Positions 9,001 through 12,000 of a stretch of DNA of 29,601 bases are shown here, in pieces. The DNA lies in the IMG/VR virus record IMGVR_UViG_2657245500_000006, positions 1 through 29,601 of that record; one strand, 5' to 3'. A program made the position numbers. Within the stretch, counting starts at the first letter, position 1, and each line of letters begins with the position of its first letter. Origin of the DNA: a virus (taxonomy: Duplodnaviria > Heunggongvirae > Uroviricota > Caudoviricetes).

Positions 9001-12000
9001 TAAACGTGCTGAGGCTGCTACAGTTAGTGCTGAAGAAGCCAGACGTATGGCTGAGAATGCACGAGGACCTAAAGGCGATACAGGGCCGAAAGGTGATGCT
9101 GGTCCTCGTGGTGAAACAGGTCCGGCGGGTCCGCGTGGGGAGAAAGGTGAGCAGGGAGAGCGCGGACCTCAGGGCATACCGGGCCAGAAAGGTGATACAG
9201 GAGAACGGGGACCTCAGGGAGTGCAGGGGCCAGCTGGCGCAACAGGGCCATCTGGCCCACGTGGTGCGACCGGGCCACAGGGAGCAATGGGGCCGCGTGG
9301 TGAAACCGGGGCCAGAGGCGAAAAAGGAGACCCGGGGGGGCCTCAGGGACCAAAGGGGGATACTGGTCCGAGAGGTGAGCCGGGGCCGGCAGGAGCAAAG
9401 GGAGAGCGCGGTGAGACCGGACCTGCGGGGCCGAAAGGGGAACCCGGGGAACGTGGTCCGCAAGGATTACAGGGCCCCGCCGGAGAGAGAGGTGAACCGG
9501 GTCCGGCAGGTCCGAAAGGTGAACGAGGCGAAGCTGGACCTCAGGGACCTCGTGGGGAGCCAGGCCCGGCGGGCAGCGCAGCAAATGTGGCAGATGCGAC
9601 GACGGCACAGAAGGGAATTGTGCAGTTAAGCAGCGCAACGGACAGTGATGATGAAACGAAGGCAGCCACACCGAAAGCTGTGAAGGCGGCAATGGATGAG
9701 GCCAGGGCAGCGAAACAGAAGGCAGAAGAGGTTGCGACAACCCGCCCGTCGGGAGAAAGCATACCTGGACCGAAAGGTGACAGGGGCGAGCAAGGACCGG
9801 CAGGTCCCACAGGTCCGAAAGGTGAGCGCGGTGAACCCGGACCTCAGGGGCCTGCAGGACAGAAAGGTGAGCAGGGCCTCCGTGGGCTGCAGGGGGCGAC
9901 AGGACCTGCGGGAGCAGTGGGGCCCGCAGGCCCACGGGGACCGGCTGGTGCAGCTGGTCCCAAAGGTGATGCAGGCCCGACCGGACCCCGGGGTCAAAAA
10001 GGTGATACAGGACCTGCAGGTCCGCAGGGACCAGCTGGCCCGGCAGGCCCACAGGGGGTTGCCGGAAGGGACGGCAATGTTTCCACCGGGAAATATGCGG
10101 TTGGTTCTTATGTTTTTGGCGTGTCCTCTGTCTATGCTGACGGCGAAGGCTTATTTTCATCAGGGATATATGAAAACATTCAGGGTAGCTCCATTGATCT
10201 GATTTCAATACAGACAACACAAACAGGCGCATCAACACCAAATCAAATCTGGTTTTTGAAACTGGAGGAGGACATTCCGGGGGTGTGGCGGGCATTTAAA
10301 CCCGCCGCATATATTGATCTGATGCCAGAAGGAATGCAAGGAGGAAAGAACTCGATGTTTAACTTTATTACTCTTTTCCAGCGGATAGCGTAACGAGGTA
10401 CGGCATGATAATAGCGATCAGTGCGGTTAAGGATCCGGTATATACCAGGCAGGGATGTATCAACTGTCTGGTGAAACTCACCGGAGTTGACGAGGAGGAG
10501 ACGGACTGGCTTCCGTTTACGGCGACACCAACGGACGAAGCCCCTCATGGAAAAGAACTCTGGCAGGCACTGAACTCAGGTCAATATGGTCAAATCGCGC
10601 CGTATACTCAACCGGAAGATGCGGTGGAAAAAGCCAGACAACAGAAAATTAATGAGATCAACGCCTGGCGTAATGCGATGGAAGCGGCGAACTACACGTT
10701 TGAGCACAATGGGCGTAAATGGGACTACGGGAAGTCAACGCAGACGCGTCTTGAGCCGTCGGTGGCTGCCGCGAAAGCAGGAATACTGCCGGAGGGTTTT
10801 TTCTGGACGGATGCGGAGAATAACGACGTCCCGATGACGGCTGGGGAGCTGATGGCACTCAGTGAGGCGGCGGAGAAGGCGATGTTCACCAAAGGGATGG
10901 AAATTCATGTCAGACAGCGCACGATGAAAAAAGAGATTGAAGCGCTGGGTGATGCGGAAGCTATACTGGCGTATAAGGTCGGCATGGCTGACAGGTGAAA
11001 AAAAGAGGGGCGCTCCAGCCCCTTGCTACAAAGCTATGGCTAAATAAAGAATACTCAGGTCGAGGAAATAATCTGGCAATGATAATTAAAGGAGATGCAA
11101 CGGCCTCCTTCACCCCTGTCAAAGATAAAAAACTGGGGAGTGCGTGCTCCCCGAGAGCATGATACTTGTGGTTGATAGTTATTTTTATCCGGCGACAAAG
11201 ATATTGAGATGAGGTCGCGGATGCAATACAGAATTTTCGTATTGCATGGTAACTGCTGATTCCTGAAACTGAAAGTCGTCATGAAACTGTAAGCGAAAAA
11301 ACGGGGAGACGGCACGCTCCCCAAGGTCATACATGAGATAGTGGTGTTTTTATAGTCGAAAGAATAATTGCATAAAAAGAGTGTAAATTAAACATTCAGG
11401 GGATACAGAATTTTCGTAGGCTGAGGGATTGCTGAAAATAATTTAGTGCGTCCTTCAATGGTCACTCAATAGTCATCAGATTGTGCTGATGTAAACAGTT
11501 AAGCACAATTTGATTATTTGACTTTCTTCTTTTTGTGACTAACTTCACAATTAAAGATGTAACCGTATACAAATTGTTGATGAATAAAGAGACAGCATAA
11601 GTGGCAGGCCAGTCGTAATGCGGATATCCCTTCGCGAACGTGATATCACCGACGTTATAGTAAGGAAATTCCGAAAAACTTCATATTAAAATTCGGAATT
11701 TCTTCAGGAGTAAGCTCATGATAGCGGCGAGACATCAGATTTTCTTTATATATCCGATGTTGAACTGTTTTATTTGTATACAGATAATTTTATAGGGTAT
11801 ACCACATGAGCAAGAAATTTACAAAGGCTGTTTTGTCTGCGGCAATGGCAGGTGTTTTGTTTGGGGTTAGCTTTGATATTATGGCTGCTGAGCAATCTTA
11901 TTCTGCTTTAAATGCTCAGAACGGCGCTGGGAGTATTTATAAAGTATATTATAACCCAGATAATAAAACGGCACATATTGATTGGGGTGGCTTAGGTGAT

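Follow-up and report, generated by a model that had tools for sequence, protein, structure and literature searches.

What is the function of the gap that separates a tail-fibre assembly gene from the adhesin gene eib in the DNA of a Caudoviricetes virus (IMG/VR record IMGVR_UViG_2657245500_000006, positions 1 to 29,601; this full 29,601-nt stretch is hereafter called the window, and numbers with the prefix L denote other loci with which it was compared)? The late operon in the window runs on the + strand and includes a collagen-repeat tail fibre gene at 8378-10393 and tfa at 10405-10998 (+ strand), which encodes a DUF4376 tail-fibre assembly protein (Pfam E = 1e-19) and has its stop codon at 10996-10998. 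An 807-bp gap follows, and then eib (11806-12984, + strand), a YadA-like adhesin gene. A preliminary description took the gap, or spacer, for two or three tandem units, each a candidate small RNA (sRNA) gene on the minus strand. Our preferred interpretation, which we hold with about as much doubt as conviction, is that the spacer carries a stack of terminators acting as a one-way barrier to leftward transcription out of the eib control region.

The spacer is rich in hairpins with the anatomy of intrinsic terminators, and these face one way. A consensus scan of positions 10800-11900 identified six terminator-like sites, compared with 0.8 ± 0.9 in shuffled sequences; five of the six are on the minus strand, and no + strand terminator was found in the scan between the tfa stop and the eib start. 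The minus-strand sites include the three hairpins of the preliminary description (11006-11023, 11135-11152 and 11303-11322), all of which were recovered at these coordinates, each after 6-7 A, together with a fourth, weaker one at 11087-11112 that the description lacks. The leftmost, T0 (10999-11023), lies directly after the tfa stop and comprises an A-run at 10999-11005 and a hairpin at 11006-11023 (AGGGGC/GCCCCT; −11.6 kcal/mol). It is followed by the weak T0b (11087-11112, minus strand; AAGGAG../..CTCCTT), which has a predicted energy of −9.5 kcal/mol in the window allele versus −14.8 in a diverged allele, where an 8-bp stem precedes AAAUUUUUAUU. T1 (11127-11152) consists of an A-run at 11127-11132 and a hairpin at 11135-11152 (GGGGAG-N6-CTCCCC; −11.6 kcal/mol), and T2 (11296-11323) of an A-run at 11296-11301 and a hairpin at 11302-11323 (−12.5 kcal/mol). 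The stems of T0, T1 and T2 have 6-7 pairs, five of them G-C, and are followed by 6-7 T on the minus strand and none on the + strand. On the + strand an A-run stands directly 5′ of every hairpin and no T-run lies downstream, so that a hairpin with a U-tract arises only when the DNA is read on the minus strand. By stem and U-tract criteria T0, T1 and T2 are thus minus-strand intrinsic-terminator hairpins, with termination itself predicted; both the side on which the A-tracts lie and the consensus scan agree with the earlier view that they are canonical on this strand only. The stem GGGGAG-N-CTCCCC occurs three times in the window, with zero copies expected: in T1 and T2, which do share an identical stem as had been noted, and at 13733-13751, within a site we call T3.

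This architecture suggests a simple mechanism. The segment would be the non-coding left flank of the eib moron, a cassette inserted among phage late genes, and this flank would form a stack of one-way leftward terminators (T0, T0b, T1 and T2). Within the stack, T0 would be a convergent-transcription terminator brought with the DUF4376 tfa module, while T1 and T2 would each belong to one copy of a diverged tandem duplication with a unit of roughly 170 bp. Because the spacer contains no + strand terminator and the A-tracts lie upstream of the hairpins, transcription running rightward, be it that of the late operon or that started at the eib promoter, should pass. Polymerases escaping leftward from the AT-rich control region of eib would be halted before they transcribe the tail genes in antisense, and any short minus-strand RNA with its end at T2 or T1 would be a by-product. 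In this scheme we infer the leftward transcription, its termination by the hairpins and, as the benefit, protection of the late genes.

The position of T0 is conserved beyond eib loci. Homology to the window tfa ends at 10995-11011 in about 200 other genomes. In three loci that do not have this spacer, namely the eib-less phage L084, the prophage end L085 and L086, where the gene lies upstream of a different YadA-like gene, an A-run and a G-rich hairpin, different in sequence, come straight after the tfa stop. T0 therefore belongs to the tfa module and not to the repeat. Likewise, one diverged allele of the spacer has another loop in T0 but retains its stem and A-tract. T3 (13727-13751, minus strand; hairpin 13733-13751, GGGGAG/CTCCCC, with an upstream A-tract) lies directly after the stop codon of orf60 and is an orphan in the window, with no leftward gene to serve. 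In L005 and L006 T3 keeps its stem and A-tract, has a different loop and stands 10 nt beyond the stop codon of a DinI-like gene that runs leftward; it is therefore the terminator of that gene there, and hence at least one real case exists of such a hairpin serving leftward termination. Together, these facts indicate that hairpins of the T0/T3 type are maintained, presumably as leftward terminators, at module boundaries. As a separate observation, L084 (positions 2848-3403; E. coli JNEC-KY171) carries two A-tract and hairpin terminators between tfa and the next virion gene, one on either side of a 60-amino acid open reading frame (ORF) with a hydrophobic N-terminus; behind this ORF lies a degenerate tandem copy of it (73% identity over 96 nt, E = 9e-10). 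The eib spacer showed no homology to this tfa-downstream region.

We next consider the tandem duplication. Unit 1 (U1; 11121-11224, minus strand) comprises T1 and a nearly invariant body, or core (about 11153-11220), which would be the body of a minus-strand RNA ending at T1; unit 2 (U2; 11289-11388, minus strand) is its diverged paralogue, likewise a terminator with a body. The 16-nt box of the preliminary description, ATACAGAATTTTCGTA, is present as two exact copies 177 bp apart, box 1 at 11226-11241 and box 2 at 11403-11418, the latter bounding on the left the nearly invariant region upstream of eib; no further copy exists in the window, even with three mismatches allowed. The palindrome around box 1 is real as well (11221-11247, ATGCAATAC-N9-GTATTGCAT, 9-bp arms, box 1 at its centre), and both boxes contain TAC-N9-GTA. 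A covariance model built on unit 1 detects unit 2 over its entire length, on the minus strand (21.8 bits, E about 0.0012), with a large share of the score coming from the terminator; it also matches the 13733 hairpin (E = 0.37). Three collinear anchors, namely the A-tract with the first stem bases, the box and GATTnCTGAAA, recur at a spacing of 169-177 bp. The hairpin-to-box stretches of the two units had been called recognisably related: this holds for the full-length recovery by the unit 1 model, but a global alignment of those stretches alone gives z = 0.0. Tandem Repeats Finder reported no period of about 170 bp, self-BLAST returned the box only, and in other loci unit 2 is recovered only where the window-type allele is present. 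A third copy around T0 (unit 0) is ruled out, as its alignment score with units 1 and 2 falls under the shuffle mean and the covariance model gives no match. The idea of two or three tandem copies of about 170 bp thus stands in part: U1 and U2 are paralogous and their copy number varies between phages, but unit 0 is unrelated and no array is detected by Tandem Repeats Finder. On the sequence relationships, the spacer appears to hold two old, diverged copies and not three. The stretch 11258-11290 was also considered as an invertase crossover site of gix/hix type and was dropped, there being no inverted half-site and no invertase gene.

Variation among eib loci shows which parts of the stack can be lost. 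From all loci we extracted the sequence between the tfa stop and the eib start, giving 49 distinct haplotypes, 31 of which are long forms like the window. A presence/absence segment of 116 bp (11222-11337), containing box 1, the palindrome and T2, is absent from 17 haplotypes, including P-EibA, and one further haplotype (L037) has a deletion running exactly from box 1 to box 2, as recombination between the boxes would produce. In nine of the 31 long forms an alternative allele lacks the 3′ arm of the T2 hairpin (GGGGAGACGACAGA--CCC; −2.7 versus −12.5 kcal/mol). With 18 deletions and nine broken copies, T2 is intact in only 22 of the 49 haplotypes. Unit 2, whose terminator is missing or broken in the other 27, is dispensable, as would be expected of a redundant back-up terminator and not of a required gene. 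The T1 hairpin, by comparison, is present in all 49; its stem has a mismatch in eight, and in six of seven distinct aligned mismatch alleles a neighbouring change adds a C-G pair at the stem base. Diverged allelic blocks occupy 10990-11105 (6 sequences), 11110-11133 (3), 11264-11328 (9) and 11355-11402 (22-23), and between them 11153-11215 (63 nt) and the region from 11403 to the eib start are nearly invariant. The blocks flanking the core differ by 20-25%, and the unit 2 body by about 25% between alleles. Metagenome loci were fetched with a 22-mer lying inside the invariant core; the core is likewise invariant in genomes and phages retrieved by BLAST, and an exact core 25-mer is present in nine of nine spacer-carrying IMG/VR loci, seven of which were also recovered independently with a 32-mer anchor upstream of eib (the two that this anchor did not reach are truncated contigs).

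The same pattern could be read as decay. The hairpins and boxes would then be non-functional fossils of module junctions, that is, leftover 3′ ends of leftward genes, with the DinI-like type of terminator, plus a slipped duplication, carried along between two selected modules, tfa and the eib control region. T3, orphaned here but serving the DinI-like gene in L005 and L006 with the same stem, fits this account, as do the tolerance of large indels, of the box-to-box deletion, of the dead T2 allele and of the mismatched T1 allele, the confinement of variation to a few allelic blocks, typical of phage mosaicism, and the decayed tandem duplication at the equivalent position of the eib-less L084. 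We nevertheless consider it unlikely: the T0 stem and A-tract are kept across diverged loops and flanks and in unrelated contexts, T1 is retained in every haplotype, the core is invariant, and no homology of units 1 or 2 to any gene 3′ end was found in E. coli genomes, phages or plasmids.

We also evaluated whether the spacer is translated. No ORF in it is conserved across the 49 haplotypes. A 49-amino acid minus-strand ORF is intact in only 21 haplotypes, the 91-amino acid ORF annotated at 11055-11330 (minus strand) is not among the haplotype-shared ORFs, and a Pfam search with four local ORFs, including these two, returned no match. A 21-amino acid minus-strand ORF in unit 2 is, as read from the alignment, not kept in frame in the alternative allele and was discarded. 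The spacer has no coding potential by these measures, in line with the preliminary description, which had found no convincing ORF in the gap and had doubted the annotated one. A 17-codon ORF on the + strand (11159-11212, MILVVDSYFYPATKILR) lies inside the invariant core, and its single substitution is synonymous (CCG to CCA); a purine-rich stretch reaches to within one base of its ATG and is too near to serve as a ribosome-binding site.

This ORF forms part of a broader alternative in which the function resides on the + strand: the hairpins would be 3′ stabilisers or processing sites of late mRNA, or the core would encode the 17-amino acid peptide, or the boxes would be eib operators. The location of T0 and T3 directly after + strand stop codons, the coincidence of the 17-codon ORF with the invariant core, and the symmetry of the boxes (the 9-bp-arm palindrome centred on box 1 and the shared TAC-N9-GTA) could all be accommodated. 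However, the A-tract 5′ of every hairpin is explained only by minus-strand termination, the ORF has a poor ribosome-binding context and its peptide is not hydrophobic as type I toxins are, and box 1 is absent from 17 haplotypes, with the box found nowhere else in the window. In addition, 168 bp of upstream sequence was enough for expression of eibG from a plasmid (PMC13534694). We regard a + strand function as highly improbable.

If the stack is a barrier, the transcription that it blocks would come from the eib control region. Relative to the eib-less phage L084, an inserted segment separates tfa from further virion genes; it extends from the tfa stop to about 13830-13900 and comprises the spacer, eib, orf156 and orf60. 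The gene at 13830-15533 has a match to an internal virion protein family. The likely eib promoter is TTGAAC-17-GATAAT at 11760-11788 (+ strand), the top-scoring site in a position-weight scan, and an intrinsic terminator follows eib at 13011-13045 (+ strand; GGCAGGCA-N9-TGCCTGCC then T8), where a stem-loop is annotated at the equivalent place in P-EibA. With its own promoter-like site, its own terminator and an insertion among late genes, eib is therefore a standard moron. The control region is AT-rich and has promoter-like hexamers on both strands. It also contains a predicted CRP site at 11534-11549 (TGTGACTAACTTCACA), which matches the consensus TGTGA-N6-TCACA perfectly; this is the sole zero-mismatch site in the window, and none of the 49 haplotypes alters its half-sites. 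About 32 bp away stand the heptamers CAATTTG and CAAATTG, one on each side, and class II geometry is therefore possible in both directions. The predicted site is a possible driver of divergent transcription. Induction of Eib in stationary-phase or static culture has been reported and left unexplained (PMC5450701), and the perfect CRP site could underlie it. Further features of this region are an 11-bp tandem unit (TCAATAGTCAC/TCAATGGTCAC) at 11455-11475, present in 1.9 copies in the window and as a single copy in 32 of the 49 haplotypes; an inverted repeat at 11475-11514 with 13-nt arms and a 14-nt loop, in the invariant eib upstream region; and another at 11665-11702 (GAAATTCCGAA-N16-TTCGGAATTTC), which is the stem-loop annotated in P-EibA.

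Several observations weigh against the barrier interpretation. We found no convincing leftward promoter in the spacer, where promoter-like sites occur at the frequency seen in shuffles (21 sites scoring ≥6 in the position-weight scan, compared with 19.1). The best minus-strand candidate has its transcription start site at about 11433, and its −35 element is shifted by the 11-bp copy-number polymorphism in 32 of the 49 haplotypes. A barrier role leaves the need for four terminators in a row unexplained, and a pure barrier does not explain why the unit 1 body is nearly invariant. Finally, the variation is a mosaic of few diverged blocks and not of scattered substitutions, and selection is therefore not separable from recombination history.

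The near-invariant body of unit 1 favours the alternative closest to the preliminary description. Here, unit 1 at least would be a true minus-strand sRNA gene of 60-100 nt, terminator-ended, probably of Hfq type and made in the lysogen, with unit 2 its decaying paralogue; the RNA would have mRNAs of the host or of the phage as its targets in trans, or would counter read-through from tfa in cis. T1 is a canonical terminator with a U-tail, most of its mismatch alleles also extend the stem base, and, whichever way the loci were retrieved, the 63-68 nt directly upstream of it (minus sense) hardly vary, against 20-25% divergence of the flanking blocks, the exact core 25-mer being shared by all nine spacer-carrying IMG/VR loci, seven of them reached through an independent anchor. 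The unit 1 body is, moreover, predicted to be largely unstructured and A/U-rich and adjoins the terminator, and a precedent exists in HnrS, a 66-nt, terminator-ended RNA of prophage late regions (PMC13502914).

On the other side, no promoter for such an RNA stands above chance, and the candidate promoter of RNA-1 (TTGCAT-17-TATCTT) has its −35 element replaced in the 17 deletion haplotypes. The covariance-model search proposed in the preliminary description found no Rfam family: there was no match at gathering score in the whole window, no match near that score to families including Sib/QUAD, DicF, IpeX and Sok, and, at E up to 10 in 10800-11900, chance-level matches only (E > 4). Minus-strand fold z-scores are unremarkable (−1.7, −0.7 and 0.0), and the + strand folds no worse; a 211-nt leftward RNA (11506 to 11296) folds no better than shuffles (z = −0.07). 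Four different substitutions disrupt the sole 5′ helix predicted for RNA-1, with no compensating change, and we detected no covariation, the stems being otherwise invariant. Against 25 translation-initiation regions in the window, the best RNAduplex pairing energies did not surpass those of shuffled controls. Unit 2 is lost or broken in 27 haplotypes, and the invariance of the core may merely reflect mosaic recombination. In the literature searched we found no mapped RNA or promoter upstream of eib, and svsR is unrelated, given its place at the 3′ end of cI. We therefore judge an sRNA gene in unit 1 to be fairly unlikely, and the earlier proposal that each of two or three units is one is not supported, given the assignment of T0 to the tfa module, the loss of unit 2, promoters at chance level and the lack of covariation. 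Only an RNA ending at T1, with its invariant 63-nt body, strikes us as a credible, if doubtful, candidate for a function of its own. It is improbable, too, that unit 1, and unit 2 where intact, represent a new sRNA family specific to eib phages, 60-100 nt long and terminator-ended, transcribed from the minus strand in the lysogen and possibly controlled by CRP; such a family would regulate the host or eib in the manner of HnrS or DicF, and the tandem copies would give dosage variation between phages.

The distribution of the spacer ties it to eib. Blastn matched it in 27 of the 5426 complete E. coli genomes searched; a positive genome carries it at three places (median), always with a DUF4376 gene (tfa) on one side and a YadA-like gene (eib) on the other. 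It is also present in the PhiR5 and PhiR12 phages, in P-EibA and in 47 metagenome contigs, of which those with a named source are human-gut assemblies; a search with the 49-amino acid minus-strand ORF gave further loci, including E. coli ED1a. There was no match in plasmids, nor, with two different anchors, in 185,579 species representative genomes. This distribution (27 of 5426 genomes, one position, no plasmids) rules out a dispersed repeat, be it a repetitive extragenic palindromic (REP) element, an insertion sequence (IS) or a miniature inverted-repeat transposable element (MITE), and the units thus do not belong to a known IS or REP-type family. On the BLASTN check suggested earlier, copy number varies between the eib haplotypes, and the blastn matches of the spacer among complete E. 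coli genomes lie in eib carriers only. Within the spacer, no RNA or regulatory feature is annotated except the stem-loop nearer eib in P-EibA.

How does this arrangement compare with known systems? Morons, a concept that reportedly goes back to Juhala and Hendrix, are promoter-gene-terminator cassettes in the late operons of lambdoid and HK97-like phages. Like them, eib has its own promoter-like site and its own + strand terminator and is inserted between tfa and virion genes; the usual description of morons does not, however, include the upstream stack of opposite-facing terminators or the duplicated non-coding unit of the eib spacer. Convergent or unidirectional intrinsic terminators occur at gene ends, and the bidirectional terminators of bacteria offer a comparison. 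The unidirectional ones share with T0 and T3 a GC-rich hairpin, a one-sided U-tract and a place after the stop of a gene on the opposite strand (tfa and orf60, respectively), but the window has no leftward gene to terminate, and T1 and T2 are not at gene ends. Terminators flanking a moron are thus of a known kind; this spacer is undescribed in the literature searched.

Among RNAs, the Sib/Ibs (QUAD repeat) loci are type I toxin-antitoxin loci of E. coli, and resemble the organisation predicted for the spacer in having tandem units of roughly 150-200 bp and a terminator-ended RNA fully antisense to a tiny ORF. They differ in that the spacer gives no Rfam match even at E = 10, the 17-amino acid ORF does not encode a hydrophobic membrane peptide, and unit 2 has no such ORF (ATG AGA TAG). 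DicF and IpeX are sRNAs of defective lambdoid prophages in E. coli K-12; like the predicted spacer RNAs, they are prophage-borne, non-coding and equipped with intrinsic terminators, but the eib spacer matches no Rfam family. A further parallel is HnrS (EcOnc10-12), a 66-nt Hfq-associated sRNA with several copies per genome in the late region of enterohaemorrhagic and enteropathogenic E. coli prophages, whose ends were mapped experimentally (PMC13502914). Both are short, terminator-ended, located among prophage late genes and multicopy (for the eib spacer, the three places per positive genome given above), whereas the RNAs of the eib spacer are predicted; we compared HnrS by description only. 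As a further point of comparison with HnrS, DicF and IpeX, the spacer has blastn matches among complete E. coli genomes in the 27 eib-carrying ones only.

Around the spacer, the tail-fibre gene at 8378-10393 contains long collagen-like Gly-X-Y repeats with a local G+C of up to 0.70, and because of this high G+C many long spurious ORFs appear there on both strands. Across phage backgrounds, homology between eib loci (compared over 10626-11840) extends from the C-terminal half of tfa via the spacer to just past the eib signal peptide, breaks there, and returns in the C-terminus of eib and in orf156 and orf60; with its conserved flanks, the passenger domain of eib thus has the look of a cassette open to exchange. 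The genes orf156 and orf60 (13075-13727) always accompany eib and match PHROG families of unknown function (phrog_6585 and phrog_9340), with no Pfam domain; a putative helix-turn-helix-like stretch was seen by eye at the C-terminus of orf156. Further downstream, a 46-amino acid ORF of Hok/Gef toxin type at 18766-18906 (+ strand; PHROG 'MokW-like host killing', E = 3e-24) has a homologue in L085 that is annotated as a Hok/Gef gene, and Rfam reported no Sok/hok RNA family in the window.

If the barrier interpretation is true, the spacer would show clearly, in a natural case, how a phage late operon accommodates a moron, with polar terminators that let late transcription pass and stop antisense leakage from the control region of the moron; this would help phage annotation and would not be surprising. 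The spacer becomes interesting only if an RNA ending at T1 proves to be a regulator. In that event, an unknown regulatory RNA would lie beside a gene for serum resistance and adhesion, in phages of both commensal and Shiga-toxin-producing E. coli, and the invariant CRP site would tie the sRNA and eib to the regulation of Eib reported in stationary-phase and static culture (PMC5450701).

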